The notes under the pieces are model-generated. The model saw only the letters and a program-made list of their open reading frames with translations, searched no databases and was not told the DNA's origin. From Eledone cirrhosa (taxonomy: Eukaryota), in assembly GCA_964016885.1 (NCBI GenBank), contig OZ024740.1, positions 316,944,001 through 317,008,000 on the forward strand: a stretch of DNA of 64,000 bases. Direction: 5' to 3'. The position numbers and the translations under genes were made by a program. This document shows, in pieces, positions 5,107 to 63,094 of this stretch (its first letter is position 1; each line of letters opens with the position of its first letter).

Positions 5107-5534
5107 CATACAGTGTGAATGTATGTGTGTGTTTCTGTATGTCTTAAGGAAAACTGGGCTACAACACAGAACAATAAAAATAATTGTTTCTTTTATTTGT
5201 CACAAAGGCATCAGAAGAAGGAAACTTTACAAAAAAACAAGTTACAACATGAAAAGGGGGCTTACATAGAAATGAGAAAAAAATGGGTAACGTGTATACA
5301 TAATATACACATAGATATATATCTTCTTTCTTTAAATCAATTGACAAGATCCAAGACTTCATTTGCTTACAGAGTGGGATGGAACTTGCCAGATTGGACC
5401 AAGAAAGACAATGTTTCCATTGTTGATTCCAGCTGTAACTCCTGGCAGAGTGAAATAAAATATCTTTCTCAAGAATATAGCACATTGTCCAGTCTGGGAA
5501 TTGAACTTGCAACCTCACAATTGCTATCCAATTG

Positions 5535-5716
5535 TGAATTTGCAGTATCGGTAGAGGGTCGGACGCCATGCTTTTCAGCATAGTTACGTCCCTTTATGGC
5601 CTGAGTTCAAATCACGTTGAGGTTAACTTTGCCTTTCATCTTTACGGGGTTGATAAAATAAAGTACCAGTAATGCACTGGGTGATTGCTGGCCTTGTGCC
5701 AAAAGTAGAAACAATT
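5535..5716 (+). mobile_element. tRNA-derived SINE S1
   Basis: A-box-like tgcagtatcgg, B-box gagttcaaatc, shared body, AAT-type tail. Confidence 0.9.
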
Positions 5717-5762
5717 ATTTTATCAACCTCAGAAAGATGAAAGACAAAGTTGACTTTAGCAG

Positions 5763-7350: not shown

Positions 7351-7590
7351 TGTGGATGCTGTTCATGACACATCTAACCTCATGGATAGAGAGAAAGCTA
7401 ATATACACGCTGCCCAGAGTAGGGCGAAATCACGTGTTATTTGCATCAAATAACGGCTCTCATGGATTGGGGAAAATGCTAGAGAGAGCAGCCCAACCAT
7501 TCAAATTTATTAGCTCAATAATTTGGAGTTCGTTAAGTATACGGAGATCGGAATTAAGAGTATTCCGCAGTTCACAGTAATAATAATAAT

Positions 7591-7774
7591 TGTTTCTACT
7601 TTAGGCACAAGGCCAGCAATTAGCCAGTGCATTACTGGTACTTTATTTTATCGACCCCGTAAGGATGAAAGGCAAAGTCAACCTCGGCGGGATTTGAACT
7701 CAGATCGTAAAGGGACATAACTATGCTGGAAAGCATGTGGTCCGACCCTCTACCGATACTGCCAATACACCGCC
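7591..7774 (-). mobile_element. SINE S1 with 16-bp TSD
   Basis: cagtaataataataat at 7575-7590 and 7775-7790. Confidence 0.92.
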
Positions 7775-8097
7775 CAGTAATAATAATAATATTAGCTCAA
7801 AGAGGAATAGAGAATTTTCTTCTGAGCTCAGATATAAATATAAATATATTACACAAATATATATATATATATACATTCAAATGTCCCTTATGATTTGAAC
7901 ACATATATATAGTGTTTGTTTCTCTTTACTGTGTTATATATATATTTTTTTTTGTGTGTAGGGTGGGGGGGGGGGTTGATATGAAATCGTGTGTTGAAAC
8001 AAATATTGTTATATTTGGGGAGGGTCATATTGTTATAATATTGCCAGAAATAATAATAGAACACACTTACTGTTTGGTTTGGGTTAGTTAGATTAAA

Positions 8098-8576
8098 TAA
8101 TTGTTTTTACTATTGGCATAAGGCCAGCAATTATCCTAGTGCATTACTGGTACTTTATTTTTATTGACCCTGTAAGGATGAAAGACAAAGTTAACCTCAC
8201 CAGGATTTGAACTCAGAATGACAAGGGCCATAACTCTATGCATCAAACCATGGCGTCTGACCCTCTACCGATACTGCCAATCCACCGCCCTTTTTCTACT
8301 TTTGGCATAAGACCAGCAATTACCCCTGTGCATTACTGGTACTTTATTTTATCGACCCCGTAAGGTGGAAAGGCAAAGTTAACCTCGACGGGATTTGAAT
8401 TCAGACCGTAAAGGGATGTAACTATGCTAGGAAGCATGGCGTCCAACCCTCTGCCAATACTGCCAATTCACTGCCATTTTGATTAAATAATTGTTTCTAC
8501 GTTAGGCACAAGGCCAGCAATTACCCAGTGCATTGCTGGTACTTTATTTTATCGACCCCGTAAGGATGAAAGGCAA
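8098..8576 (-). mobile_element. Three tandem SINE S1 copies (the last is 5'-truncated)
   Basis: Units at about 8098-8289, 8291-8475 and 8488-8576. Confidence 0.9.
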
Positions 8577-8656
8577 AAAATGGCGTAGACATTACAATAC
8601 AACGGGAGGAAAGATAATAGCGCTTCACAGATGTGTGACGAAAGAACTTTGATAGA

Positions 8657-9572: not shown

Positions 9573-9660
9573 TTGAATCAGTTATAAATATTTATATTTG
9601 TTGAATAACCAACAAATTGAATATCCCTTCTGCTTATATATATAATATATATATATATAT

Positions 9661-9784
9661 AGTGGTAGAACACTGGAAGGTAATATCTGTAGTGGTAGAG
9701 CACTCAGTTCATGGGACGAGTTAGGTAGAAGTGGTTACAGAACTGTTAGTTCACCATACCGGTGAACTAACTGTTGTGTAACCA

Positions 9785-9787
<3 letters not shown>
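9661..9787 (-). mobile_element. Short copy of the 3' terminus of the Penelope-like element, with fold-back
   Basis: 9661-9761 matches 30810-30910. 27-bp inverted arms at 9729-9755 / 9761-9787; (TA)n on both sides. Confidence 0.85.
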
Positions 9788-9835
<48 letters not shown>

Positions 9836-9838
<3 letters not shown>

Positions 9839-10046
9839 CCAGTAAGACCCCGACAGCTGAGCTCAAACCGTTTCGACGGCTAATTCTGGACTAAATGGAA
9901 TTGCATTTAGTCCAGAATTAGCCGTCGAAACGGTTTGAGCTCAGCCGTCGGGGTCTTACTGGTTCCTATTACCCACTCTACTACCCTAAGTATTGAGTAC
10001 TTTGGTGCGTTATGGTCCACCTGGTTCCTTACCACATTTCCTTCGT
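9836..10046 (+). mobile_element. TA-embedded fold-back element (65-bp arms) carrying the 3' half of a hammerhead
   Basis: Palindrome 9836-9965, centre 9900/9901, 2 mismatched pairs. GAAA-cggtt-tgagctc-agccg-TC at 9927-9949. Confidence 0.75.
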
Positions 10047-10162
10047 TATATATATATATATATATATATATATGTAGGAGGTGAGTTTTAATGTAGTACA
10101 ATAAAGCAATGCAGATATCGGATAAGAAGCACTCTACAGTTTGTAGGACTGGAGTATACATA

Positions 10163-17552: not shown

Positions 17553-19216
17553 ATCATCATCATCATCATCATCAGGTTTAGCGTCCGTGTTCCACGCTTG
17601 CATGGGTTTGGACGGGGGTTTTCCCACTTGAGGCAAGAGTGGTTGTCTTGCTCGCATAGGACTGTCTGGCGGGTTTTCTACAGTTGGATGCCCTTCCTAA
17701 CACCAACCACATTTACAGTGTGGGGCTGGGAGGTTTTTACCGTGTTGCCTACACGGCCACATTACAGCGTGGACTGTCTGGCGGGTTTTCTACAGCTGGA
17801 TGCCCTTCCTAACACCAACCACATTTACAGTGTGGGGCTGGGAGGTTTTTACCGTGTTGCCTACACGGCCACATTTACAGCGTGGACTGTGTGTTTTTTT
17901 GTCATGACACCTACACGATCTCATTTGTTTCGGCCTGGATGGCGCGGCACCAACATAACTTTACATAGAATGGGGTGGTGTGGATGGGGTGGGGGTGGTG
18001 GGACGGGGTGTATTTTGTTAGAGATGCCTACTGGCTGGAGTAGGTTTTTACTTTGTATTTAGGTAAGGCGGGTCTTCTCTATTACTGAGTACCGCCAAAG
18101 GTCTCGGTCCAGTGACATTGTCTTGGAGAGGTGTAAGCGTGTGAGGTCGGAATTTATCAGCTCGTCCCATGTTTTCCTGGGTCTGCCTACTCCGTGGCTA
18201 CCGTCTATCTTTATTGCCCTGCACTTTGTTATACAGCTGTCGTCTTTCATGCGCATCACGTGACCGTACCAACGTAGCCTTCTCTCGAGTTAACAACATC
18301 TGATCCCTCTTATTTCTAATTTTTTCCTTAGTTCGTTTATGCTTTGCCGTTCACGTATATTACTATTGCACATCCAGCGGAGCATGCAAGCTTCGTTCCT
18401 CTCTAGTCTGCGTATATCCTCTGCACACAATGCCCAGGTCTCACTGCCATGCAGCATTGCTGTTCGTATGCAGGCATCGTATAACCTGCCTTTCATTTTT
18501 AGGGAGAACCCTCTAGCGGCTAATAGTGGTATAAGCTCTCTGAACTTTTTCCATCCAGTTCTGACTCTAGCTACTGTACTTTCAGAGCACCCTCCCCCAC
18601 TGCTGATTTTGTCACCCAGGTAACGGAAGCTGTCCACTATTTCTATAGAACCCTCTGCGCAGTTGAAGGAGCTAGTATTTTGTGGGCACTTGCTGCTACT
18701 TATTGCACCAGAGCACCGGCCACATGTAAAATCTATGTTCTTAGTTAGCTTACCTGTGATCCCACTACATCTTTTATGCACCCATACTTTGCATTTGGGA
18801 CATAAAATGGAGTTTCTACCTACGCCTTTCCTACACACTGAGCATGGCCATTTCCCAGATGGGACTGCCGCCATATTTTCTTTCCTACAAACTAGAACTT
18901 TTGTCTTAGCCAGGTTAATTTTAAGGCCTTTTGATTCTAGGCCGTGCTTCCATGTTTGGAATTTCTTCTCTAGTTTGGTCATTGATTCAGCTATGAGCGT
19001 TAGATCATCTGCGTATAGGAGTTCCCATGGGCAGCCGGTCTTGAACTCCTCTGTTATTGAAGGGCAATAATAAATAGTAGGGGGCTAAGAACAGAGCCCT
19101 GATGGACACCAACTTTTACGCTAAACTCTTCACTATATTCGTTGTTAATTCTAACCTTACTGACTGTTTCTTTATACATGGCTTGTATAGCTCTCACAAG
19201 CCATTCGTCAACACCT
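17553..19216 (-). mobile_element. RTE subfamily B, 5'-truncated, with a tandem duplication in the 3' UTR
   Basis: ORFs 18059-18982 cover the RT C-half with PHD-like finger; (CAT)n tail. Confidence 0.95.
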
Positions 19217-26404: not shown

Positions 26405-28108
26405 CTAAGGCGGGTAAAATTCCCGAGATCCATGGACGAGTTCTCTCCAGCGGTCTCTGTCCCTCATTATCGCTGCCATATCCTGCATCTCCAACAGACC
26501 AGTGTCTGTCCTTAGGGCATCAACATATGTTAACCTTGGTCTTCCTCTTCTAGTGTGTCCATGTAGGGGCTCCCAAAGGAGCATTGAGTGCAATGTCAAC
26601 TCTGGATGTCAGTGAGCATGTCCAGCCAACCTCAGTCTCCTCTGTGTCACTTTTGAGCTGACTTTTGGGATGCTCCCATACAGCTCTGAGTTTTTCATCC
26701 TCAGTGTATACTGATTAATGTTCAGAGCCATCCTCAGCATTCTCGTGTAGCACCCATCCACCATCTGAGTGAGTCTCTTGGTCAGTGTCCAAGTCTCAGA
26801 CCCATACAGCAGCACAGACTCCACTACAGCAATGAAGAGGCGGACCTTCAGGTCTCTACGAAGGTCCGACTTCCACACCGATCTCAAGCTGTGACACGCC
26901 GCCCAGGCCTTGCTCTTCCTCCCAACCACATCATCTTCCGTATTCCCAATCTTTGCTCCCAAATACAGGAAGTCCTCAACCAATTCCAGTGGCTTCCCGC
27001 CTACATTAGTGATCCCCTCTGGCTTCTCAACATTCTCCACCAGATATTTTGTTTTAGTCTCATTCATTCTCAGCCCCACACTCATCGACACAGTCTCAAC
27101 CTCCCGCATCAAATCCTCTGCCTCCTTCACTGTATTTGTCACCAAAACTATGTCGTCGGCAAATTCAGCATCCGATACCTTTTTCGCCCCAACTCTCCTG
27201 CTCTGAGCCGGTGCTACAGTAAAGCCAGTGTCCTGGTGTTTCTCCAGTGCAAGGCGCATACAATAGTCCACTACGATGATAAAAAGGTAGGGAGCCAATG
27301 TATCTCCCTGGAGCACTCCAGCCAGTATCTCAAAGAACTCTGTCATCCCATCAGGTGTAATGACTTGGGCTTTGGTGTTGGTGTAGAGCAGTGATATCAG
27401 GTCCACTATCCTCTTGGGGATTCCATAAGCCTGTAAGATCTTCATCAGGCAGTAACGGTCCACAGAATCAAAGGCCTTCCTAAAGTCAATGAAAACCATG
27501 ACCGCAGGAAGGCACTTTGCTCTAGCTCCCTCTAATATCCTCCTCAGCATCAGGATGTGACTGGTGGTTGATCTACCCTCTCTGAAGCCGTTCTGGTTGT
27601 CCCTGAGCTTCTTCTCCATCTCAGGCTGGATCCTGTTAAGAATCATCCTGTTGAGGGTCTTTGCCACAAGTGACGTCAGTGAGATCCCCCGGTAGTTGTT
27701 GGTGTCAGAGAGATCTCCCTTCTTTGGCACTGGGACGATGTTACTGATCCTCCACTGATTCGGGGCAACTCCTTTCTCCAGTGCCCCGTTACAGAACCCC
27801 AGGATGATATCATCAAAATCACACCTCTTCATCACCTCTGATGCCACTCCATCCTCTCCATGAGCCTTGCCCTCCTTGATCTTCTTCTTGGCTCTCTGAA
27901 GCTCCTCTCTGGTGAAGGGCTCTTTCTCAACATCCAGTTCCTCAAACAGCCGCCTGATCTCCCCACTGCTCTGGGCTGTGGAGGGTGGCTCTCCTAGTAG
28001 GGTCCTAAAATGGTCTAGCCATTTCCTCTTCCTATCCTCGGGCCCCGTTCCCTGGATCTGACTCGAACACCTTTTCTTCCTCCCTGTGATCTCGTTGATG
28101 ATCATCCA

Positions 28109-28110
<2 letters not shown>
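26405..28110 (-). mobile_element. RTE-like LINE (separate family, no PHD insert), long open RT, embedded in (TA)n
   Basis: Uninterrupted frame 28108-26609: [48 protein letters not shown]. Confidence 0.95.
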
Positions 28111-28170
<60 letters not shown>

Positions 28171-28278
28171 GGACATGCACACATACATGCATATATATAC
28201 ACACACATGGGCATGCAACACACACACAACACACACAGACACAGATAAACACATATACACACACATTTATACATATAT

Positions 28279-28312
<34 letters not shown>

Positions 28313-28330
28313 ACATACATATATATATAT

Positions 28331-28393
<63 letters not shown>

Positions 28394-28440
28394 CATACAT
28401 ACATATATATATATATATAAATACATACATATATATATAT

Positions 28441-28534
<94 letters not shown>

Positions 28535-28768
28535 TTAGAAACACACAGATACATGCGGACACACACATATATACATGAATGCATCCGCACCCAACTGTGA
28601 GTTAAGGGTGCCAACTTCACCGATGTTGCTCAATGAATGACTGGGACAGACCAATTCAGTTTGAACCAGACTGAACCAGTATCAGAGTTAAAAATACATT
28701 ATGAAGAGAGAAGAAACATTTAGATATAATTAGTAATAAAATGTATCATACCTAAACTGTTCCTAAAT

Positions 28769-28856
28769 TCCTCGACTACGTAGTTTCGTGGCATAAACAA
28801 AAACAATATATCAAAGATATAGAGTCCTTGCGAGGTCTGCCGACTTATCAAGAGGA
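28769..28856 (-). ncRNA. Type I hammerhead motif (inverted-head copy)
   Basis: Reverse complement of 29058-29145. Confidence 0.82.
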
Positions 28857-29057
28857 TACCTCATTTTACTAGTCTCAAGAACGCGTCTACACGACGTGAG
28901 AAAGAATCCCAAAAGGCGGAGGGGGAGATAGTCACGCGATATAACGGTCGAGAAACAGAGCTAAGCCTCTTATAACCACGAAAAAAATACCCCTCCGCCT
29001 TTTGGGATTCTTTCTCACGTCGTGTAGACGCGTTCTTGAGACTAGTAAAATGAGGTA

Positions 29058-29145
29058 TCCTCTTGATAAGTCGGCAGACCTCGCAAGGACTCTATATCTT
29101 TGATATATTGTTTTTGTTTATGCCACGAAACTACGTAGTCGAGGA
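29058..29145 (+). ncRNA. Type I hammerhead motif, U3-A8 core variant
   Basis: tcctc-TTGATAA-gtcggca...tgccac-GAAA-ctacgtag-TC-gagga. GUC cleavage site after 29140. Confidence 0.85.
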
Positions 29146-29648
29146 ATTTAGGAACAGTTTAGGTATGATACATTTTATTACTAATTATATCTAAATGTTT
29201 CTTCTCTCTTCATAATGTATTTTTAACTCTGATACTGGTTCAGTCTGGTTCAAACTGAATTGGTCTGTCCCAGTCATTCATTGAGCAACATCGGTGAAGT
29301 TGGCACCCTTAACTCACAGTTGGGTGCGGATGCATTCATGTATATATGTGTGTGTCCGCATGTATCTGTGTGTTTCTAAATGTATTAATAACTCCCTCTG
29401 GTCGAGCAATCTTTGAAGTGTGGGGACAACTGGAAAGCTTCCATTACTCATACTTCTCGCCTTCTTCACTACCTCTTCTGCGGCCTCGATATGAATACCC
29501 CCTCCGCCTCCGTGGTATTTTTTTCGTGGTTATAAGAGGCTTAGCTCTGTTTCTCGACCGTTATATCGCGTGACTATCTCCCCCTCCGCCTTTTGGGATT
29601 CTTTCTCACGTCGTGTAGACGCGTTCTTGAGACTAGTAAAATGAGGTA

Positions 29649-29736
29649 TCCTCTTGATAAGTCGGCAGACCTCGCAAGGACTCTATATCTTTGATATATT
29701 GTTTTTGTTTATGCCACGAAACTACGTAGTCGAGGA
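29649..29736 (+). ncRNA. Type I hammerhead motif, copy 2
   Basis: Identical, +591 bp. Confidence 0.85.
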
Positions 29737-30239
29737 ATTTAGGAACAGTTTAGGTATGATACATTTTATTACTAATTATATCTAAATGTTTCTTCTCTCT
29801 TCATAATGTATTTTTAACTCTGATACTGGTTCAGTCTGGTTCAAACTGAATTGGTCTGTCCCAGTCATTCATTGAGCAACATCGGTGAAGTTGGCACCCT
29901 TAACTCACAGTTGGGTGCGGATGCATTCATGTATATATGTGTGTGTCCGCATGTATCTGTGTGTTTCTAAATGTATTAATAACTCCCTCTGGTCGAGCAA
30001 TCTTTGAAGTGTGGGGACAACTGGAAAGCTTCCATTACTCATACTTCTCGCCTTCTTCACTACCTCTTCTGCGGCCTCGATATGAATACCCCCTCCGCCT
30101 CCGTGGTATTTTTTTCATGGTTATAAGAGGCTTAGCTCTGTTTCTCGACCGTTATATCGCGTGACTATCTCCCCCTCCGCCTTTTGGGATTCTTTCTCAC
30201 GTCGTGTAGACGCGTTCTTGAGACTAGTAAAATGAGGTA

Positions 30240-30327
30240 TCCTCTTGATAAGTCGGCAGACCTCGCAAGGACTCTATATCTTTGATATATTGTTTTTGTT
30301 TATGCCACGAAACTACGTAGTCGAGGA
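30240..30327 (+). ncRNA. Type I hammerhead motif, copy 3
   Basis: Identical, +1182 bp. Confidence 0.85.
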
Positions 30328-30396
30328 ATTTAGGAACAGTTTAGGTATGATACATTTTATTACTAATTATATCTAAATGTTTCTTCTCTCTTCATA

Positions 30397-30492
<96 letters not shown>

Positions 30493-30535
30493 AGTAAGTA
30501 TGTTTTGAAACAGTGAGCAGGTTTGAAATTAGAAA

Positions 30536-30722
30536 ATAGAATAGCTTTCACTGTATTTTTGACTAAAGGAATTTTAGCCTGATAATGGGGTTTAGAACCC
30601 TCAGATAAATGGAAAAAGATGAGTATTGACGTACGTCAATACTCATCTTTTTCCATTTATCTGAGGGTTCTAAACCCCATTATCAGGCTAAAATTCCATT
30701 AGTCAAAAATACAGTGAAAGCT

Positions 30723-30729
<7 letters not shown>
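30536..30729. repeat. Spacer-less palindrome with 97-bp arms, between (TA)n tracts
   Basis: Centre gacgt|acgtc at 30632/30633; one mismatched pair. Confidence 0.93.
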
Positions 30730-30809
<80 letters not shown>

Positions 30810-30813
<4 letters not shown>

Positions 30814-32430
30814 GTGGAACACTGGAAGGTAATATCCGTAGTGGTAGAGCACTCAGTCCATGGGATGAGTTAGGTAGAAGTAGTTACACAACTGTTAGTT
30901 TACTATACCGAGAACAATTGTTTCACCTTAGCGGATCCTCAGGTCGGAATGGGCATGGTTATAGGAACAGGAAGGACAACCGTATGAACACGCATGCGCA
31001 GAAACCCGGTCACTTCACACAGGCAATACTAGACTGCGTGCGAGAGGTGTAAGGGAGATAACTGTGAAAGTCCGAAAAGTTTCTATGTTGAAAATAAAAT
31101 TACAAAGAATCAGTCCGGAGCCTTCTAGTTATGCAATAGGTGTTTGGAAATGTGTGGACAACGTGTGAAAAATTCATTTCTCGTGTTTAGGCAATCACTA
31201 TTGCGTAATCTCTTTAGAATAGTTATTCGTTCGTCAATACATAAGCCACACGTCGGATTTCCCCTTGCGTATGGCTTGGACTTAGTGATGGCTTTCCATT
31301 GAATGGAGTAGCCTATACTTGAGTCCTTGAGGGACCATACGTGGCTCACGAGTTTCGTGGATGAACGTCTGTCCGGGTACCTGAAGGTAGACTGGTGGTT
31401 CAGGAAACGTTCTTTAAATCGGTCCTCCGCCATGCCCACATAGGATTTGACCTCCTGTGGTTCATTTGGTCGGTTGGAAGTGATCACAGCTTCATAAATT
31501 ACAGCTGGTGTGTTGGATTGCTGTTGAAGGAGGAAAATCTCAGGCTTACGGCAAGAGCACCCTGGTGGGGTGTTGCTCCTAGGGTTGCTGGTGATGTGGG
31601 CCTTCATGTTCTTAGTGCAGGAGTATCCTAGTTTAACTTTGTGTCGGTTAAAGATGAGGCGGTATTTATGACCTATGGGAAAGTGTCTATCTAAGAGGGC
31701 TAGAAATTTTTTTCCTACATTGGTTTTAACATTGAGTGAGAAGGAAGGAGAGAACCAGATAGGTTGTCTATTGTTGCGGTTACTTTTCTTAATGGTATTG
31801 TTGCTAGTGGGAGAGTAAGTGATCGGTTGTGAGAAGCCTCTGTTAGCCAAACGCCGTGTTATAATAGGGTGCCGCCCTGTCAAAGATAGCCTTATTAGAG
31901 GAGAGATTTGAGATTCTAGTACTGATATTGTTAACGAAGTTTCTAAAAACAGTGGGAGGGTGGCATGAGTCCTTGTGAATGTAATTGAGTTTCTCGTTTA
32001 GCTTATGGAAGGGTTTGTGGGTGTGGTGTGGACGAAGGTCTAAATTAATGTCTAAGAAATCTACGCTAGATAGGTTGGTGGCTACTGTTATCCTAAGTCC
32101 TAACTCATTGAAGGTAGAAGCTAAGTCTTTTTTAAACCGGTCGAGGTCGTGACCACTTTTATGGCTCGATAAAGTCACTCCATCGTCGCGGTATATTCCC
32201 GTGTGGAAGTCCGGGAATCTAACACGTAATATGTATAAGATAAAAAGGCCAACCAAGTCACATACATCAGCACTGTCAAACGATCCCATGGAGACGTCGA
32301 ATAGGTCTGAAGTTGTAGACTTCTTTGCCCAGGCTACTCCGTCGTTGAAGAGGAGGGGTTTCCGGCAGTGAGTGATGATTTCCTTGTCTAAACAATCGAC
32401 GGTGGTATAAGTGATAGCGAAGCATCTGGA
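30810..32430 (-). mobile_element. Penelope-like element, 5'-truncated (RT + GIY-YIG), tentatively Naiad-type
   Basis: MGSFDSADVCDLVG, IYRDDG, VDFLDI, then CSCRK linker, VIY..SYVG..FKERF..H, CGLC, C-x-H. One frameshift near 31860; 3' end abuts (TA)n. Confidence 0.92.
30908..30947 (-). ncRNA. Minimal type I hammerhead in the Penelope 3' pLTR
   Basis: Minus strand: ccgac-CTGAGGA-tccgctaaggt-GAAA-caattg-TT-ctcgg (C-C mismatch at 1.1/2.1). Confidence 0.8.
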
Positions 32431-34345
32431 AAGCATCTGGAATGGTGGGACACACTATGGTCACCCAGATAGTAAACCAAGTCATACAGAATGGGGTCGT
32501 TCCGAAGGACTGGCGTAGCAGCAGCATCATTAACTGCTACAAGGGTAAAGGAGATGCCCTAGATAGGGGAAACTATAGGCATTAAATTAATTGACCAGGT
32601 CATGAAGGTCACAGAAAAAGTAATAGCGCAACTAATCAGAGAGCGAATTGATCTAGATGAAATGCAGTTTGGGTTTGTGTCAGGTAAAAGTACAACAGAC
32701 GCTCTTTTCATTGTACGACAACTACAGGAGAAGTACCTAGCTAAAAGTAAACCCCTATACTTAGCTTTTGTTGATTTGGAGAAAGCCTTTGACAGAGTAC
32801 CCCGCTCGATTATCTGGTGGGCTCTTAGAAAACTAGGTGTTGATGAATGGCTTGTGAGAGCTATACAAGCCATGTATAAAGAAACAGTCAGTAAGGTTAG
32901 AATTAACAATGAATATAGTGAAGAGTTTAGCGTAAAAGTTGGTGTTCATCAGGGCTCCGTCCTTAGCCCCCTACTATTTATTATTGCCCTTCAGGCTATA
33001 ACAGAGGAGTTCAAGACCGGCTGCCCATGGGAACTCCTATGTGCAGATGATCTGGCTGAACTAGAGAAGAAATTCCAAACATGGAAGCATGGCCTAGAAT
33101 TAAAAGGCCTTAAAATTTACCTGTCTAAGACTAAAGTTCTAGTTTGTAGGAAGGAAAATAGGGCACCGGTCCCATCTGGGAAATGGCCATGCTCAGTGTG
33201 TAGGAAAGGAGTAGGCAGAAACTCCATTTTATGTCCCAAATGCAAAGTATGGGTGCATAAAAGATGTAGTGGGATCACAGGTAAGCTAACTAAGAATATA
33301 GATTTTATATGTGGCCGGTGCTCTGGGGCAATAAGTAGCAGCAAGTGCTCACAAAATACTAGCTCATTCCATTCCACAGATGGTTCTATAGAAATAGTGG
33401 ACACCTTCCGTTACCTGGGTGACAAAATCAGCAGTGGGGGAGGGTGCTCTGAAAGTACAGTAGCTAGAGTCAGAACGGGATGGAAAAAGTTCAGAGAGCT
33501 TATACCACTATTGGTCGCTAAAGGGTTCTCTCTAAAAATGAAAGGCAGGCTGTATGATGCCTGCATACGAACAGCAATGTTACATGGCAGTGAGACTTGG
33601 GCATTGTGTGCAGAGGATATACGCAGACTGGAGAGGAACGGAGCTTGCATGCTCCATTGGATGTGTAATAGTAATATACGTGAACGGCAAAGCATAAATG
33701 AACTAAGGGAGAAATTAGGAATAAGAGGAATCAGATGTTGTTTACTAGAGAGAAGGCTACGTTGGTATGGTCACGTGATGCGCATGAAGGACGATAGCTG
33801 TATAACAAAGTGCAGGGCAATAAAGATAGACGGTAGCCACGGAGTAGGCAGACCCAGAAAAACCTGGGACGACCTGACTGATAAATTCCGACCTCACACA
33901 CTTACACCTCTCCAAGACAATGTCACTGGACCGAGATCGTTGGCGCTACACAGTAATATAGAAGACCCGCCTTGCCTAAGTACAAAGCAAAACCTACAGC
34001 CAGTAGGCACCTCTAACAAAAATACACCCCTGTCCCACTATCCCCCACCCCATCCACACCACCCCTTTCCAGTCCGAAACAAATGAGGTCGTGTAGGTGT
34101 CACAACAAAAAACACACAGTCCACGCTGTAATGTAGCCGTGTAGGCAACACGGTAAAAACCTCCCAGTCCACACCGTAAACGTGGTTGGTGTTAGGAAGG
34201 GCATCCAGCCGTAGAAAACCCGCCAGACAGTCCTATACGAGCAAGACAGCCAATCTTGCCTCAAGTGGGAAAATTCCCGTCCAAACCCATGCAAGCGTGG
34301 AAGATGGACGTTAAACGATGATGATGATGATGATGATGATGATGA
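32431..34345 (+). mobile_element. RTE subfamily B, 5'-truncated
   Basis: ORF 32602-34086 is an RT (YADD mutated to CADD) with PHD-like finger; (GAT)n tail. Confidence 0.95.
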
Positions 34346-34379
34346 TATATATATATATATGCATATGTATATATATATA

Positions 34380-34567
34380 TAATTGTTTCTACTTTTGGCA
34401 CAAGGCCATCAATTACCCAGTACATTACTGGTACTTTATTTTATCGACCCCGTAAGGATGAAAGGCAAAGTTAACCTCGGCGGGATTTGAACTCAGACTG
34501 CAAAGGGACGTAACTATCCTGGAAAGCATGGCGTCCGACCCTCTACTGATACTGCCAATCCACCGCC
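34380..34567 (-). mobile_element. SINE S1, full length
   Basis: Minus strand begins ggcggtggattggcagtatc, with A and B boxes. Confidence 0.92.
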
Positions 34568-34769
34568 ATATTATACCACCATTATATATATATATATATA
34601 ATGAAGGTGCTTGGCTTAGTGGTTAGAGCATTGGGCTTGCAATCGAAAGGTTGTGAGTTCAATTCTCGGACCTGGTGATGTGTTGTTTCCTTAAGCAAGA
34701 CACTTTATTTCACATTGCTCCAGTTTACTCAGCTGTAGAAATGAAATGATAGGACTGGGGTCTCTATCA

Positions 34770-35049
34770 TTCCACTACAAAGTGGTCGTGAAGGTGCCAT
34801 GGCAAAAAAGCACCCAGCCCACACTGTAAAGTGGACGCGTAGGTGCCACGGAAAAAAAAAAGCACCCAGCACTCACTGTAAATGAGGTTGGTGTTAGGAA
34901 GGGCATCCAGCTGTAGAAATCAAGCCAAAATCAGTTCCCGTATGAGCTAGACAAGGTCAGCCGACCGGACACTGCCCGCAAGAGGACAAGCCGTCTAACC
35001 CATGCTAGTGTGGAAGAACGGACGTAAAACGGTAATGATGATGATGATG

Positions 35050-35052
<3 letters not shown>
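34770..35052 (+). mobile_element. RTE subfamily C 3' UTR
   Basis: Matches 49330-49588; (GAT)n tail. Confidence 0.85.
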
Positions 35053-35076
<24 letters not shown>

Positions 35077-35080
<4 letters not shown>

Positions 35081-35895
35081 TAAAATGGCGAGCTGTGTGG
35101 TTGCAATTAAGTATAATGAAAATATGAAAAATAAAAGTTACGGCGAAAGAGGGGAATATCCATCGTCAGTTGTCTGCTTGGAATCATAGGTATTTCTTCG
35201 CATCAGAGACAAAATACCTCAGCCTAGGGCGAACAATAACTAAAATAAGTTATTGGGATAAAAAATAAAGGTGGGGGGGGGGGAGAAAAACATGTAAACA
35301 GACACGAAGGGTGAAGCAATTTTTTCATTATACTTAAACGCAACCACACAGCTCGCCATTTTATTCATATAAGCTTCCTTCTCTGCTGTGACCCGTCTCT
35401 TTTCTCTCCCCTTGTTGCTATCTTCTCTCTCCTTCTCCCTCTTACTTTCGCTCACCCCCTCTGCTAGTCACCTTCTCTCGGCTAGCCTGCCACTATAATT
35501 ATCTCTTTCTCGCTTCCTCTTACTTTCACTCACTCCCTCTCTGCTAGTCATCCTCTCTCTGCTAGCTCACTTTCTCCCTCATCCGCCACTGTAAGCAGTC
35601 TCTTCTCTCGCTCACACTGCTACAGCTAAGACGTGTCTTGTTTCTCTCTCATCAAACTCGCCAGTTCTTACATTCGAAATGACTTGATATTTTCCTCTCT
35701 TTATGTTGCTTCACCCTTCGTGTCTGTTTACATGTTTTTCCGCCCCTCCCCTTCTTTTATCCCAATAATTTATTTTAGTTATTGTTCGCCCTAGGTTGAG
35801 GTATATTGTCTCTAACGCGAAGAAATACCAATGATTCCTAGTAGTCAACTGACGATGGATATTCCTCTCTTTTATTTTTCATTTTTTCATTATAT
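35077..35895. mobile_element. TA-embedded element with an inverted head spanning its unit junction
   Basis: 35077-35319 is the reverse complement of 35706-35893 joined to 35320-35368. Confidence 0.75.
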
Positions 35896-35909
35896 ATATA
35901 TATAACTAT

Positions 35910-36259
35910 CTAAGGCGGGTAAAATTCTCTCCAGCGGTCTCTGTCCCTCATTATCACTGCCATGTCCTGCGTCTCCAACAGACCAGTGTCTTACCTTAGG
36001 GCATCAACATACGTTAACCTTGGTCTTCCTCTTCTAGTGTGTCCATGTAGGTAGAGAATGTTGAGAAGCCAGAAGGGATCACTAATGTAGGCGGGAAGCC
36101 ACTGGAATTGGTTGAGGACTTCTTGTATTTGGGAGCAAAGATTGGGAATACGGAAGATGATGTGGTTGAGAGGAAGAGCAAGGCCTGGGCGGCGTGCCAC
36201 AGCTTGAGATCGGTGTGGAAGTCGAACCTTCGTAGAGACCTGAAAATCCGCCTCTTCAT
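35910..36259 (-). mobile_element. Short RTE copy (26.4-kb family) with 5' inversion
   Basis: 35910-36050 matches 26405-26567. 36050-36259 is the reverse complement of ~26832-27041. Confidence 0.88.
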
Positions 36260-36316
36260 ATATATATATATATACATATATTGATACAGAATATATTAAT
36301 ATATATGTATTAATAC

Positions 36317-36664
36317 AGAAGACCCGCCTTGCCTAAGTACAAAGCGAAACCTACAGTCAGTAGGCACCTCTAACAAAAATACACCCCTGTCCCACTACCC
36401 CCACCCCATCCACACCACCTCTAAAGTTATGTTGGTACCACAACATCCAGTCCGAAACAAATGAGGTCGTGTAGGTGTCACGACAAAAAAACACACAGTC
36501 CACGCTGTAAACGTGGTTGGTGTTAGGAAGGGCATCCAGCTGTAGAAAACCCGCCAGACAGTCCTATACGAGCAAGACAACCAATCTTGCCTCAAGTGGG
36601 AAAATTCCCGTCCAAACCCATGCAAGCGTGGAAGATGGACGTTAAACGATGATGATGATGATGA
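36317..36664 (+). mobile_element. RTE subfamily B 3' UTR
   Basis: Matches 33960-34345. Confidence 0.88.
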
Positions 36665-37048
36665 GGTATGTGTGTGTCTGTGTGTGTGTAAAGATATATG
36701 TATATATATATATGTGTATTTGTGTAAGTGTGTATGTGAAGAGAGAAAGAGGACAAGAAAACAGACAACTAGATCATTATACATGCATAGACATTCACAC
36801 AAACTTGCACACAATCTCAGATACACACATTCACACACACACACTATCTCACACTCATACACACACCCTCTTTCTCGTTCACCCACATGTACATCCACAT
36901 ACTTCCCCACACACACACAAACACACACTCACACATATACCCTCAGAATGACAGTGACTGACCTCCTATATTAACAAAACAACAGTCTCATTGTGTCATT
37001 ATAGACACAATGACAAAACAAACAACATATTAATAATAATGATAATAA

Positions 37049-37806
37049 CAATTGTTTCTACTTTTGGCATAAGGCCAGCAATTATCCCAGTACATTACTG
37101 ATACTTTATTTATCGACCCCCGTAAGGATGAAAGGCAAAGTTAACCTCGACGGGATTTGAACTCAAACCATAAAGGAACGTAACTATGCTAGAAAGCATG
37201 GCGTCCAACTCTCTACTGATACTGCCAATTCACCGCCGAGTTTAATATATATAATTGTTTCTACTTTTGGCACAAGGCCAGCAATTACCCAGTGCATTAC
37301 CGGTACTTTATTTTATCAACCCCGCAAGAATGAAAGGCAAAGTTAACCTCGGCGGGATTTGAACTCAGAATGGCAAGGGCCGTAACTCTATACATCAAAG
37401 CATGGTGTCCGACCCTCTACCGATACAGGTAAATCCACCAATTCAGGTAAAATTGCGTTATAACAAATTTATCAGTATGATGAAATTTTTTTTAATCCCC
37501 GGCCAAACTAACGATGCGTTAGGTCAATTCCATTACAACAAATATTTTTTTATACCCCATGAATTTCGTTATAACGGAATTTCACTGTAATTGTTCCTAC
37601 TTTAGATACAAGGCCAGCAATTTTAGGGTAGGGGAAAGTCGATTAAATAGACCCCAATACATTACTGGTACTTTATTTTATCGACCCCGTAAGGATGAAA
37701 GGCAAAGTTAACCGTAGCTGGATTTGAACTCAGAACATAAGGGGCCGAAACTCTACGCTGCAAAACATGTTGTCTGACGCTCTACCAATCCTGCCAATCC
37801 ACTGCC
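37049..37806 (-). mobile_element. Cluster of three SINE S1 copies
   Basis: Units at about 37049-37237, 37252-37440 and 37588-37806. Confidence 0.9.
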
Positions 37807-38202
37807 CTAACAACAACACTAACAGTAATAACAATAAAATAAATAGTAATATCAAACCTAGCTATTTACTATGCTAAAAACTTGAATACATACATGTTAA
37901 TATGGGAAATAACTGTATAACATGAAAACAATACAAGATATGTTTGCTGGACAGAATAGAGTTTTCTCTGATCTTTCTAGAATGTCTTATTAGCAATCAA
38001 TAAATAAGCAAGCATTTAACAATTTCTGTCAAGATTAGGCTGATACTAATTCACAAATTGTTCAAATAGATAAGGTAAGAAAGTAGACTAACAGCTTAGA
38101 GGTCATTTAGATATAAATCCTTTACATTGTGATATGTTGATATGTCTCAGATTGAGTTTCTTAATTCTATGTACTTCGCTTAACATAGCTGTCAATATAT
38201 AT

Positions 38203-39758
38203 ATCATCATCATCATCATCATCATCAACGTTTAACGTCCGTGTTCCACGCTTGCATGGGTTTGGACGGGGGTTTTCCCACTTGAGGCAAGAGTGATTGT
38301 CTTGCTCGCATAGGACTGTCTGGCAGGTTTTCTACAGTTGGATGCCCTTCCTAACACCAACCACATTTACAGTGTGGGTCTGGGAGGTTTTTACCGTGTT
38401 GCCTACACGGCCACATTACAGCGTGGACTGTGTGTTTTTTTGTCGTGACACCTACACGATCTCATTTGTTTCGGCCTGGATGGTGTGGCACCAACATAAC
38501 TTTACATAGAAGGGGGCGGTGTGGATGGGGTGGGGGTGGTGGGACGGGGGGTGTATTTTGTTAGAGATGCCTACTGGCTGGAGTAGGTTTTACTTTGTAT
38601 TTAGGTAAGGCGGGTCTTCTCTATTACTGAGTACCGCCAAAGGTCTCGGTCCAGTGACATTGTCTTGGTGAGGTGTAAGTGTGTGAGGTCGGAGTTTATC
38701 AGCTCGTCCCAGGTTTTTCTGGGTCTGCCTATTCCGTGGCTACCGTCTATCTTTATTGCCCTGCACTTTGTTATACAGCTATCGTCCTTCATGCGCATCA
38801 CGTGACCATACCAACGTAGCCTTCTCTCTAGTAAACAACATCTGATCCCTCTTATTTCTAATTTTTTCCTTAGTTCGTTTATGCTTTGTCGTTCACGTAT
38901 ATTACTATTACACATCCAGCGGAGCATGCAAGCTTCGTTTCTCTCTAGTCTGCGTATATCCTCTGCACACAATGCCCAGGTCTCACTGCCATGCAACATT
39001 GCTGTTCGTATGCAGGCATCGTACAACCTGCCTTTCATTTTTAGGGAGAACCCTTTAGCGGCTAATAGTGGTATAAGCTCTCTGAACTTTTTCCACCCAG
39101 TTCTGACTCTAGCTACTGTACTTTCAGAGCACCCTCCCCCACTGCTGATTTTGTCACCCAGGTAACGGAAGCTGTCCACTATTTCTATAGAACCCTCTGC
39201 GCAGTTGAAAGAGCTAGTATTTTGTGGGCACTTGCTGCTACTTATTGCCCCAGAACACTGGCCACATGTAAAATCTATGTTCTTAGTTAGCTTACCTGTG
39301 ATCCCACTACATCTTTTATGAACCCAAACTTTGCATTTGGGACACAAAATGGAATTTCTACCTACGCCTTTCCTACACTCTGCGCATGGCAACTTCCCGG
39401 AGGGGACTGCCGCCTTATTTTCTTTCTTACAAACTAGAACTTTAGTCTTAGCCAGGTTAATTTTAAGGCCTTTTGATTCTAGGCCGTGCTTCCATGTTTG
39501 GAATTTCTTCTCTAGCTCGGCCATTGATTCAGCTATGAGCGTTAGATCATCTGCGTATAGGAGTTCCCATGGGCAGCCGGTCTTGAACTCCACTGTTATA
39601 GCCTGGAGGGCAATAATAAATAGTAGGGGGCTAAGAACAGAGCCCTGATGAACACCAACTTTTACACTAAACTCTTCACTATATTCGTTGTTAATTCTAA
39701 CCTTGCTGACTGTTTCTTTATACATGGCTTGTATAGCTCTCACAAGCCATTCATCAAC

Positions 39759-39762
<4 letters not shown>
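38203..39762 (-). mobile_element. RTE subfamily B, 5'-truncated, open frame
   Basis: ORF 38601-39743: GVHQGSVLSP, YADD, PHD-like finger, YLG. Confidence 0.95.
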
Positions 39763-39822
<60 letters not shown>

Positions 39823-40059
39823 TATATATATATACATACATATATATACATATAATATATATTGTAGTCAGCATATGTAGACAATTTATAATAGACATGT
39901 TTAACGTCCATGTTTCCATGCTGGTATGGGTTAGGCGAATTGGAGTGTGGACTGGATGCTTTTTTGCCATGACACCTATATGACCACATTATATATAAAT
40001 GTAATATATCAATAAAAGATCAGAGGCCATATTCAGTTGATTCAGGTTTATTTAAAACT

Positions 40060-40117
40060 CCATTATACATATTTCACTGAGGACTATCAATTATGATTGC
40101 CTGAGTTCTTCAGACGG
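40060..40117 (-). ncRNA. Type I hammerhead motif in a TA-flanked element (~40008-40340)
   Basis: Minus strand: ccgt-CTGAAGA-actcagg...cctcagt-GAAA-tatgta-TA-atgg. A second, truncated copy is at 55236-55303. Confidence 0.78.
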
Positions 40118-40445
40118 CAAAACCTAAAATAAACATAGAAAGTTCCTAAGCAACTTTTAAATTTGGAAAAATCTAATAATTTCTCAGAAAAAAGATTTTA
40201 TTTCATGATACAAGGGGCCGGCCGAATGCATTCAGCTGGCCCCTTGTGTCATTTAACAGGTTCATGAGCGCTTCTTTTTATTTGCTTCACAACCGACAGA
40301 CCATGGTGTGATCCGCACATCCCTGCTCTCTTAACCTCTTACTCTATATACATATCTATATATATCTATATATAAAAGACGTAAAATAAGAACATTTAAA
40401 AAAAAAATTTTTTTTTAAAAATTAACTTACTTACTTAAATTTTCA

Positions 40446-40525
40446 CTCCAACTAATTAGTTTCTGCAATGGGATAAAGACAGTTACGTAATGAACCGTTG
40501 AGAATTTCATTGCGTCATCAGGGAG
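40446..40525 (-). ncRNA. Type I hammerhead motif (mirror copy)
   Basis: Reverse complement of 40874-40953. Confidence 0.8.
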
Positions 40526-40873
40526 GTCATTCTCAGCCGAGTCTCCAGGCGATGCGCGGACACTGGCGACTCATATAAAAATAATAATAATTCGGTAAAT
40601 GGAACAGCTATCGAGGACTGGATTCCAGCTACTGAAAATTCTCACTGCCACTGATCATATGGCCGATTCTAAAGAATCAATCACGTGACACAGAGGCTAG
40701 TCAGTAGGGGTGGTAAGATTGATTCTTTAGAATCGGCCATATGATCAGTGGCAGTGAGAATTTTCAGTAGCTGGAATCCAGTCCTCGATAGCTGTTCCAT
40801 TTACCGAATTATTATTATTTTTATATGAGTCGCCAGTGTCCGCGCATCGCCTGGAGACTCGGCTGAGAATGAC

Positions 40874-40953
40874 CTCCCTGATGACGCAATGAAATTCTCA
40901 ACGGTTCATTACGTAACTGTCTTTATCCCATTGCAGAAACTAATTAGTTGGAG
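40874..40953 (+). ncRNA. Type I hammerhead motif with palindromic stem III
   Basis: ctcc-CTGATGA-c-gcaatg...cattgc-a-GAAA-ctaattag-TT-ggag. Cleavage site after 40949. Confidence 0.83.
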
Positions 40954-41145
40954 TGAAAATTTAAGTAAGTAAGTTAATTTTTTTAAAAATTTTTTTAAAA
41001 AAATGTTCTTATTTTACGTCTTTTATATTATTGTTCTGCATTCTCCTGCATCGAACCACCTAGGTACTATGACATAACCTGTGTATTTGCTGGCATTGGC
41101 GTACATCTGTGCGCTTATGTTAGTAGATATATTAAATTATCTATA

Positions 41146-41234
<89 letters not shown>

Positions 41235-41362
41235 ATATATATATATATATCTATATATATATATATCTATCTATATATATATATCTATATATATCTATAT
41301 ATATATATCTATATATATATCTATATATATATCTATATATATCTATATATATCTTTATATAT

Positions 41363-42026
41363 CATGAGACGAAGAAACCATCGCGCACGCATTCACACAC
41401 TGCCCGGGTGTCACTGATCTGTGGAGCTATGTAGAACGACTATTGTCGCGGGTGGGACTAATCCGGTTGACCACCGAGTCCATTGTCATGATCAAACCGC
41501 CACCCTCCTTCAAAAACGAAGGAGAGGCGGTTTTCCTTTGTGTGATAGCTATGGCGAAAGAGGTTGTATGGTGGACAAGGTTGAAAGGGCTGAGGTCAGA
41601 CACCTTTCTCTCTGGCCAACAACTGATTCTTTTTTTCAAATACCACTTTGGAAGAAGAATCAGGATGGAGAGAGAGGTGCTGTACCCCAGCAAGTTTTAT
41701 GAAAGGTGGGTGAAAGTGGCGAGAATGGCCCGAGTGAATGGGCCTTCTCTCTATATCAGCCTGTAGGTTGAGGAAAAAGAGGAGGAGAGGAAAGGAGTAC
41801 AAACTCTTCGTACTCCTCGAGATGAGGGTTGCACATTTTTTTTCGGGGGTATGTGTTACCCATATGTAATTTCTCCCCCTATTGGGGAAAATCGACTAAT
41901 TTTTAAATTGCATTTGTGATAATATTTTACATGTTTTTATTGTATGTAAACTTCCCCCTTTGTATTTGTCCCCTTCTTTTGTACCCCTGTGGCTAATAAA
42001 GAAACATATCTATCTATCTATCTCTA
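41363..42026 (+). mobile_element. 3' fragment of a Tx1/L1-like element
   Basis: ORF 41443-41766 closely matches 47245-47568; aataaa plus (TCTA)n tail. Confidence 0.92.
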
Positions 42027-47851: not shown

Positions 47852-48070
47852 TCAAGTTTAATATAGAAATGGCTTCTACAGGACTAGAACTGTTTCATTC
47901 AAAAGAAACCATGAAACTATCCGGAAAGCCCTTTCGTGATGATTTCTTTTGAATCAAACAGTTCTAGTCTTGTTGAATCCATTTCTATATTAAACTTGAT
48001 GTTTACACTACACTAATGGATTGAGTACTAAACTAACTGTGATTAGCTCCGATTGAACCCAGGACTCAGC
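47852..48070 (+). mobile_element. Older TA-adjacent fold-back element with a decayed hammerhead
   Basis: Imperfect arms at 47852-47908 / 47943-47999. HHR consensus can be rebuilt at 47932-47978. Confidence 0.6.
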
Positions 48071-48142
48071 GCCCCCCCCCCCCACACACACACACATATA
48101 TATATATATGGTAAAGTATGTGTTAGTCAATTACTGATACTA

Positions 48143-49588
48143 TTGTGAAAGCGGTACAAGCCATGTATAGGGGAGCAGTCAGCAAAGTTAGGATTGGCAA
48201 TGAGTATAGCAAGGAATTTAGCGTACAGGTTGGGGTCCACCAGGGCTCTGTTCTTAGCCCTCTCCTGTTCATCATAGTCCTGCAGGCAATAACGGAGGAG
48301 TTTAAGACCGGATGCCCATGGGAACTCCTGTATGCTGATGACCTCGCACTCATAGCTGAATCTATGGTAGAACTAGAGAATAAATTCCAAACCTGGAAGC
48401 AGGGACTAGAGAGAAAGGGCCTCAAAGTCAACATGACAAAGACTAAGGTCCTTGTAAGTAGACGAGAAAACAGAACCCAGATCCCCTCAGGGAAATGGCC
48501 TTGCTCAGTATGTAGGAAAGGTGTAGGTAGGAACTCCATTCTCTGCCCCAAATGCAAACAATGGGTACACAAGAGATGTAGCGGGATCTCAGGAAGCTTA
48601 ATTAAGAATGTAGGATTCACATGCAGCAGCTGTGCTGAAACAGCAAGCAAACAGCCACAGGAAACAAGTACCACCAATCTCTGGGAGGGCCCTGTAGAAA
48701 CAGTAGACAGCTTCTGCTACCTAGGTGACCGAATTAGCAACGGAGGTGGGTGCTCAGAAAGTACAATAACTAGGGTAAGAACGGGATGGAAGAAGTTTAG
48801 GGAACTACTACCACTGCTAGCTGCAAAAGGCTTCTCCCTCAGAATGAAAGGCAGACTGTATGATGCGTGTATCCGAACAGCGATGTTGCATGGTAGTGAG
48901 ACCTGGGCGCTGAAGGTGGAAGACTTACGTAGATTAGAGAGAAACGAAGCCTGCATGCTCCGATGGATGTGTAACAGTAATATACGTGAACGACAAAGCA
49001 TAAAGGAATTGAGAGAGAGACTGAGCATAAGAGGAATCAAATGCTGCGTGCAGGAGAGGCGGTTACGCTGGTATGGACATGTGATGCGTATGAAGGATGA
49101 CAGCTGCATAAAAAGGTGCAGAGCACTAGAAGTTGATGGAAACCGCGGAGTGGGGAGACCCAAGATGACTTGGGGTGAGGTGATAAAAGCCGACCTTACC
49201 CAACTACACCTCTCAAAGTCAATGACACACGACCGTGACTTCTGGCGTCACGCAGTAATACAGGGTACCCGACCTCCCATGGGTACATGCTGAAGCATAT
49301 AAACAATATGCCCCCCCCCCCCCCCACCGCAAGGTGGCCGTGGAGGTGCCACGGCAAAAAAGCACCCAGCCCACACTGTAAAGTGGACGTGTAGGCGCCA
49401 CGAAAAAGCACCCAGCACTCACTGTAAATGAGGTTGGTGTTAGGAAGGGCATCCAGCTGTAGAAATCAAGCCAGATCAGTTCCTGTATGAGCAAAGCATG
49501 GTCAGCCGACCAGACACTGCCCACAACAGGACAACCCGTCTAACCCATGCTAGCGTGGAAGAACGGACGTAAAACGGTGATGATGATT
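48143..49588 (+). mobile_element. RTE subfamily C, 5'-truncated, open frame
   Basis: ORF 48145-49293 with YADD and PHD-like finger; (GAT)n tail. Confidence 0.95.
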
Positions 49589-53689: not shown

Positions 53690-54089
53690 ATATTAAAAAG
53701 TGCCCAATCCAATTAAAAAGCGCCCAAACAAAAAGTGGCCAGCTCACACTATAAAGGTGTCATGATAAAAATTACCCAGCGTATTTTGTTAAGTGGTTGT
53801 GCTGGTGCCATGATAAAAAGCTACCCAGTCATGTAAGGTGGTTGTGTTTGTGCCATAATGAAAAGCATGCAGTCCAATATGCCAAGTCGTAGTGCCAGAG
53901 TTCTGATAAAATACTCCCAGTACACGCAGTAAAGTGGTTAGCATTAGGAAGGGCATCAAACTGTAGAAAGCAAGCCAAAGACAGAGTGTATGACCAGGAT
54001 ATTGTCACCTGACCAGTCTAGCCTCAGTTTGTAATTACTCGTTTAACCCTTGCAAGGGTTAAATGAGTAATTACAAATATAGACATTAA

Positions 54090-54281: not shown

Positions 54282-54334
54282 TGCCCCCTCGTTATCGAGT
54301 ATGGCCATTGCACGATATACTATTATTAATTTGT

Positions 54335-54516
54335 GAATTGGCAGTATCGGTAGAGGGTTGGACACCATGCTTTCTAGCATAGTAACGTCCCTTTACAGTC
54401 TGAGTTCAAATCCTGCTGAGGTTAACTTTGCCTTTCATCCTTACGGGGTCGATAAAATAAAGTACCAGTAATGTACTGGGTAATTGCTGGCCTTGTGCCT
54501 AAAGTAGAAACAATTA
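54335..54516 (+). mobile_element. SINE S1
   Basis: tggcagtatcgg A-box, gagttcaaatcc B-box. Confidence 0.92.
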
Positions 54517-54534
54517 ATTAATTCTATCGTGCAA

Positions 54535-61118: not shown

Positions 61119-61470
61119 TGTACAAAGCCAGTCTCACTCTCTTAACCAAGATGATACTTACCAAAAAGAAGAACAAGTCAACATCATTGGATACCATCCA
61201 ATGATGTTGACTTGTTGTGCCTTTGCTCACTATAAAAGTTTCACGGCACAGGCATTGCTTTATATCTGGAGATCTCTTTGCACTTGTCGTCACATGGTAC
61301 CATGGGCCCAGCACTATGTGTCAATAATTGTCACAAGTGTAGTGTTTGTACCAGAGTTTTCAAGTCGCTGGCTGGACTAAAAAGTCACACTCGTTCAGCG
61401 CATCGGTAGGGGTTCTCCTACATGGATATAAAGTAGTGGTCGTACTCGAAAACGAGTTGGCAGCCACCAT
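61119..61470 (+). mobile_element. Second copy of the 23.2-kb element, with 5' inversion
   Basis: 61119-61197 is the reverse complement of ~23315-23392. The rest is colinear and ends KSHTRSAHR*. Confidence 0.82.
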
Positions 61471-61840: not shown

Positions 61841-62056
61841 ATGTTTATGTTTACTTATGTGTATGTATGTTTGTATGTACATATGCGTATGTGTATACTG
61901 TTGTGGTAGCCAATGTATGGATTCATTTTTCTCCATCAATGTGAGTTTATACTCACATTGATGGAGAAAAATGAATCCATACATTGGCTACCACAACAGT
62001 ATACACATACGCATATGTACATACAAACATACATACACATAAGTAAACATAAACAT
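61841..62056. repeat. Palindrome with 108-bp arms
   Basis: Centre gagt-ttat-actc at 61948/61949; arms otherwise perfect. Confidence 0.93.
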
Positions 62057-62444
62057 TATAAACCATAGCATGTATCACAATGTTTTCTATAGGACCAATT
62101 ATTTTGATAAGCATTAAAATAATCTACAACTTTTATTCACTGAAGTATAACCCAATCAGATAAACCAACACATATAGAATGTAATTATGAGATACAGATT
62201 TCCTCATTGTTAAATATGTAAATTATAGAAAGAAGGAAGAAAATACTTTGCAGGCTATGTATTAATTACTGTTGTTGTTACTGTTGTTATTGTTACTATT
62301 ATTGTTATTTGTTACTGTTGTTGTTTGTTTGTTCAGCCAATCAAGGACGTTTTTTTATATGTTTGCTCAAGGCTTATTACATTTAATACTAGAATTGCTT
62401 TAATTTATGGCTAAACTAGCTGAGAGAGAGAGAGGGACGAGAAA

Positions 62445-63042: not shown

Positions 63043-63094
63043 CTTAAATTACTGGATAAATAATGAGAACATTTTTTTATATTATTGAATTGTT

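Follow-up and report, generated by a model that had tools for sequence, protein, structure and literature searches.

A short copy of the 3' end of a Penelope-like element lies in the window (the whole 64,000-nucleotide stretch of Eledone cirrhosa DNA that was analysed), and this copy breaks off beside the predicted cleavage site of a hammerhead ribozyme and folds back on itself. The question that the locus raises is whether the copy records ribozyme activity, as an earlier note had proposed, with a self-cleaved 3' RNA fragment as the template, or whether it is a truncated insertion of the ordinary kind.

We observed that the short copy at 9662-9761 (minus strand) corresponds to the last 100 nt of a Hydra-clade element (30811-30910), with a 5' truncation point that falls 2-3 nt within the predicted 3' cleavage product. 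The two aligned without gaps and with 8 mismatches in 100 nt (92% identity, E 6e-35) when the masked window was compared with itself by BLAST, and the correspondence with the Penelope 3' end reported earlier was thus borne out. A third copy of this 3' end was absent among the 321 self-matches listed from the same search. The long arm is followed by an inverted arm at 9761-9786 (plus strand), a copy of 30904-30879 that pairs with 9730-9755 over 26 nt with 2 mismatches, and the two are separated by a 5-nt loop (9756-9760, equivalent to 30905-30909). The earlier description of an inverted copy followed by (TA)n was right as to both parts, but the arm had been given as 27 bp and measures 26 nt, the 27th pair of the hairpin being formed with the T that opens the (TA)n. 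The two arms overlap by one nucleotide, G9761, which could be assigned to either. The whole copy is 125 nt long and lies between a (TA)n target microsatellite at its 3' end (9635-9661) and a second (TA)n tract (9787-9834) that it shares with another fold-back insert. Its predicted fold had a z score of -4.4, and none of 200 shuffles folded as well (0/200). At the two arm mismatches, the inverted arm carries the family majority letter at 30893 and the letter of the long copy at 30889, and the short copy as a whole differs from the majority letters of the family reads at 5 positions. Fold-back of a cDNA accounts well for the 26-nt arm, and the proposal of a cDNA snap-back was upheld to this extent.

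The long copy (30811-32460, minus strand) is a 5'-truncated, frameshifted Penelope-like element, with a (TA)n tract (30727-30810) at its 3' end and an RTE-type LINE adjoining it at about 32443. One reading frame holds the RT core with YRDD (31843-32454, minus strand) and another the thumb, linker and GIY-YIG endonuclease (31125-31997, minus strand); both YRDD and IY..YVG motifs are present. The order of RT and then C-terminal GIY-YIG was supported by tblastn of the protein P0008, which spans 32460-31846 and then 31850-31113 (E 5e-88), and 2327 representatives match the long-copy protein at E 1e-10 or better. A Pfam search with both long-copy frames returned 0 families. C201, C204, E207, N222, C231 and H233 were invariant across 45 sequences. 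The stretch from Y119 to Y137 of the window frame is free of Cys, and hence there is no CCHH, and CxxC and CxH flank the conserved E and N. The CxC of the linker motif CxCx5C is present; its third Cys is replaced in this decayed copy and kept in 8 aligned homologues. Both window copies are inserted in (TA)n, and the loose ends found at 30813 and 30817 in two contig sets, X3 and X4 (see below), are TA-rich.

By these features the long copy appears to fit the Hydra clade as defined in PMC8557442 (no CCHH, CxxC/CxH, (TA)n target), an assignment made by motifs and target for a copy that is without its N-terminal part. As far as the portion of that paper available to us goes (Craig et al. 2021, PMC8557442), the clade shares with our element an RT and GIY-YIG without CCHH, CxxC/CxH at the conserved E and N, the (TA)n target and a 3' hammerhead. 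The same portion describes inverted 5'-truncated copies as frequent in Penelope-like elements and 30-40 nt tails as common, and calls the role of the hammerhead unclear; Penelope-13_HM bears a 5'-truncated inverted copy there, like the short copy studied here. The 3' end of our element differs from that of Hydra-1_Obim as judged by eye in the sequences seen, and two of the family's nucleotide motifs gave 0 matches in the part of the supplement that was available, where line breaks could hide some.

A protein-based metagenome scan for related loci gave 68 pattern matches, of which 0 were confirmed. A 20-nt pattern from the element gave 0 matches in genomes and 0 in viral contigs; its 2 metagenome matches agreed with the window over 21 nt only and were taken as chance.

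The type I hammerhead motif was found at 30908-30947 (minus strand), with a predicted scissile bond between 30913 and 30912. When both strands of the window were scanned for hammerhead patterns, 11 rows were obtained, one of them at 30912 in the Penelope-like element. The pattern places the core at 30942-30936 and 30924-30921, U16.1 at 30914, U17 at 30913 and position 1.1 at 30912, and by these positions the cleavage coordinate of 30912 given earlier was correct. A conserved core, an NUH triplet, stems I and II and a palindromic stem III, the minimal features of type I, are all present, with a stem II of only 2 bp. The window copy is mismatched at 1.1-2.1, but the family majority is paired (138643/139382 of the X3 depth at 30943, >99%). 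Rfam reported no hammerhead in the whole window at the gathering threshold, and none was among the 72 matches to E 10 for 28000-42000. In the Hydra rows of File S2 of PMC8557442 that we could count, stem II is closed by U..U in 14/26 and U stands at the cleavage position (17) in 10/26. Because of the pattern scan, the family reads and the published Hydra motifs, we take the motif to be real and 30912 to be the first base of the predicted 3' product.

The predicted minimum-energy fold of the monomer was not the active hammerhead fold. With the majority letters (a 76-nt piece, carrying one subfamily's letters), 30902-30909 pairs with 30952-30959 at a probability of ~0.94, as against 0.06 for stem I. 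This predicted 8-bp stem would enclose the hammerhead in an inactive fold, and could serve as an off-switch or a pause site.

The homology of the short copy ends at 30910 (2 nt short of 30912) or, if the shared G9761 is counted with the inverted arm, at 30909 (3 nt short); the stop 2 nt before the cleavage product, as first noticed, holds within this range. The junction is most simply read, without any subsequent change, as that of a cDNA that came to an end at 30910 and paired by its last base at 30904. Both arms end within 8 nt of the predicted site. Over spans of 200-300 nt, a break placed at random would have a 1-4% chance of lying within the 3' product by 0-3 nt, which is suggestive, for a feature chosen after looking. 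In the family sequence, a 4-bp inverted repeat spans the site (30898-30901 with 30912-30915, given the majority letter at 30901), and because of it an exact run-off at 30912, with the last base pairing at 30901, would leave the same junction as a read-through to 30915. By this reasoning, either course requires a later two-letter change to give the junction observed. The junction of one copy cannot separate run-off from read-through.

We then turned to the breakpoints of related copies, using reads mapped to 30811-31410 (the 3' 600 nt). Four of the 8 listed runs were used (X1, X3, X4 and X6). X3 and X4 are contig sets of one sample (5320 and 6049 contigs placed), and X6 is a raw reduced-representation run (29177 reads placed). 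The share of the window copy's words found in these runs is 0.38-0.41, and a relative may be the source of the reads. X1, from another organism (word share 0.11, 42 contigs placed), had no joints. Fifteen of 38 joints were listed, 9 of them opposite-strand; the 6 same-strand rows do not enter the count. The opposite-strand joints were 30865-31028, 30890-31065, 30892-30950, 30914-30954, 30973-31082, 31040-31064, 31041-31296, 31068-31073 and 31082-31271. None of these nine (0/9) had both ends inside the 3' product (at or below 30912), and 15 of their 18 ends lay upstream of the site. A single end (1/18) came within 3 nt of 30912, namely 30914 on the upstream side, where 0.24-0.47 would be expected (P 0.21-0.38); tight hairpins are probably under-sampled in the libraries that gave these counts, and some raw-read joints may be library chimeras. 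One listed joint was a tight fold-back with a 5-nt gap, at 31068-31073, 156 nt from the cleavage site. Four listed joints had one end at 30950-30957, two of them opposite-strand and two of unstated kind. A joint at 30900/30957 was considered as a possible use of the same acceptor as in the short copy (30904) after read-through; it had 2 reads and its kind was not given, and it was not counted.

The mean summed contig depth along the element, which is not a copy number, was 369k at 30811-30910, 430k at 30911-30950 and 74k at 30951-31370 in X3, and 438k, 504k and 96k for the same three intervals in X4. The step of about fivefold thus lies beyond 30950, upstream of the whole ribozyme, and there was no step at 30912. 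Loose ends at 30905-30913 were absent from the 20 of 961 places listed. In X6, 1482 of 2010 first-mate-plus molecules extend to 30919, beyond the cleavage site. The reads of this run start at GCATGC (30992) and stop at AATT sites (30916, 31098, 31171), one of which lies inside stem III; these are presumably the sites of the two enzymes of a double-digest library. Two accumulations in X6, of 2281 loose ends at 30916 and of 1482 molecule ends at 30919, were also considered as support for cleavage and rejected, as they fit such a library.

The breakpoint peak at 30912 that had been put forward as a check was not seen among the joints and loose ends listed, although a modest peak is possible. Short family copies may often have their start a little upstream of the ribozyme and contain all of it, with a common 5' edge. 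Together, these results have led us to conclude that the short copy is probably an ordinary truncated copy; related copies break at many places and mostly run past the site. The claim that the self-cleaved 3' RNA was the template was not supported, with no peak at 30912 in the listed reads, a junction 2-3 nt short of it, and run-off and read-through indistinguishable. The cleavage inference lacks support beyond one copy, and the available evidence leans against it.

On balance, we favour an ordinary 5'-truncated, 5'-inverted Hydra-clade insertion, made by a premature stop and a fold-back, and give it somewhat better than an even chance. The endonuclease would have nicked the (TA)n tract, as the flanks and the known preference of the clade suggest. 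Reverse transcription would have started at the 3' end of the element and halted after about 100 nt, within the paired stretch immediately 3' of the ribozyme, on an RNA template that need not have been cut. The cDNA end would then have folded back at 30904, extended over the 26 nt seen in the inverted arm, and joined the other (TA)n end. Both arms end in or beside the 30902-30909 strand of the predicted stem with 30952-30959, and the nearness to the cleavage site would be chance, aided by this local structure. Comparable copies are known from the Penelope of Adineta vaga, where the part of PMC3846280 that was accessible describes a short inverted copy at the truncated 5' end, palindromes (18 and 38 bp, at pLTR 5' ends) and an optional tail of about 30 nt. 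That element differs in belonging to the Penelope/Poseidon clade with target-site duplications; the paper predates the discovery of the ribozyme, and in the part at hand breakpoints are not related to it.

A possible, if doubtful, alternative is that the ribozyme cut the transcript, and the 102-nt 3' fragment was copied to its end, with 2 nt lost before the cDNA snapped back. The break lies 2-3 nt from position 1.1, at the chance level of 1-4% given above, and the motif, which the family majority keeps intact, agrees with Hydra motifs already published. There is also a precedent in engineered R2 insertions, for which the available text of PMC11371274 reports a ribozyme-made 5' end of the template and snap-backs after full-length cDNA. 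The likeness is that the cDNA primes on itself from its 3' end ahead of the formation of the 5' junction; in R2, however, an HDV-like ribozyme fixes the 5' terminus of the full template, and most snap-backs come after full-length synthesis, as reported for one protein. In our family, by contrast, 100 nt separate the cleavage site from the 3' end, and the listed reads show no peak. The break is not at 1.1 itself, exact run-off would share its junction with read-through, and neither a peak, a depth step nor a pile of loose ends marks the site in the data listed. Minimal animal hammerheads also cut poorly as monomers, cleavage being weak and dimers needed according to the part of PMC4209133 we could consult, and in the one reconstituted system (PMC11167929, available in part) cleavage was dispensable in vitro, with no RNA reads ending at the site.

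A narrower form of this alternative, in which a minority of the short family copies were reverse-transcribed from the 3' cleavage product, lost 2-3 nt and were closed off by a snap-back, with the present copy as one of them, seems unlikely to us. If it were true, the copy would be a genomic record of germline cutting by a Penelope-type hammerhead, and would show that the cut fragment can still serve as template. Breakpoints that peak at the site would offer a cheap in vivo read-out of the hammerhead, in a family with a very high copy number; the read data show no such peak, and point to the possible common 5' edge just upstream of the ribozyme. A full-text search, with most subscription journals outside it, found no work that maps genomic breakpoints to the hammerhead site.

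It is also conceivable, and in our judgement improbable, that both target strands were nicked and each primed a cDNA, one at the true 3' end and one internally at 30879, the two being joined head to head. Such a course is compatible with a cut or an uncut template alike. The end of the short arm coincides exactly with one of three CCACT-type motifs, the third (30879; the others are at 30840 and at 30810, the true 3' end), and in 8 of the 9 listed inversion joints the arm ends are 24-255 nt apart. In the portion of PMC11167929 seen, two internal start sites and extension of both strands are described for the anole enzyme. The long arm agrees at 30893 with the long copy and the short arm with the majority letter (>99% of X3 depth), a weak hint of two templates; but this base lies in the middle of a 7-nt inverted repeat and may be subject to repeated flipping. 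The 5-nt loop and the 1-nt overlap are as expected from a snap-back, and 30879 is not among the 3'-side loose ends listed (30813, 30817). A template switch during DNA replication after insertion, making or perfecting the hairpin at the native 4-bp inverted repeat, is highly improbable: that repeat (30898-30901/30912-30915) exists with the majority letter at 30901 and titles and abstract openings in the literature name such switches as a source of hairpins, but (TA)n follows the short arm immediately with no upstream element sequence past it, and the local hairpin has little stability (-2.3 kcal/mol), with a pair probability of 0.0 when the 76-nt piece is folded.

When we compared the short copy with non-LTR retrozymes, as these are presented in the parts of PMC7229834 and bioRxiv 10.64898/2026.07.22.740005 available, we observed that both are short non-coding derivatives of Penelope-like ends, the retrozymes with type I hammerheads. 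The retrozymes differ in being tandem units, each with a ribozyme, whereas the short copy is a single fold-back without a hammerhead motif.

We also evaluated the proposal that run-off explains the other palindromes of the window. They gave no masked self-BLAST match to the element and none was tied to the cleavage site, and a general ribozyme mechanism for the palindromes is unsupported. A relaxed core scan of 8 palindrome regions found core-like strings in 3, none of them foldable by eye into a full hammerhead. The second (TA)n-flanked fold-back, at 9836-10046, has arms of about 65 nt and an 80-nt unpaired extension, shares its microsatellite with the short copy, and has a tail that is only loosely like Hydra tails; aligning 9901-10050 to the 3' end of the Penelope-like element gave no convincing match. 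A near-perfect palindrome at 30488-30726 (94-nt arms, no loop, 50-nt extension), between two (TA)n tracts, adjoins the long copy and is unrelated to it in sequence. At 28532-30399, also between (TA)n tracts, a 591-nt unit is present in 2.4 near-identical tandem copies with an inverted copy before them, a Penelope-like architecture in which the scan found no hammerhead. The palindrome at 40370-41028 (280-nt arms at 99%, 34-nt spacer) carries in each arm a hammerhead-core-like string without stem I, and is possibly a foldback DNA element. Further palindromes, with arms of 27-106 nt, are at 61841-62056, 47852-47999, 54028-54077 and 61164-61224.

The remaining repeats include LINE copies with RT and then a PHD finger, which we take to be of RTE type, at 32563-34086, 38601-39761, 48127-49293 and 18290-19084. 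A tRNA-like head (34605-34674) and a repeat of about 190 nt, present in many copies (including 5530-5730, 7580-7775, 8090-8577, 37053-37440, 54331-54522 and 62442-63045), are probably SINEs.
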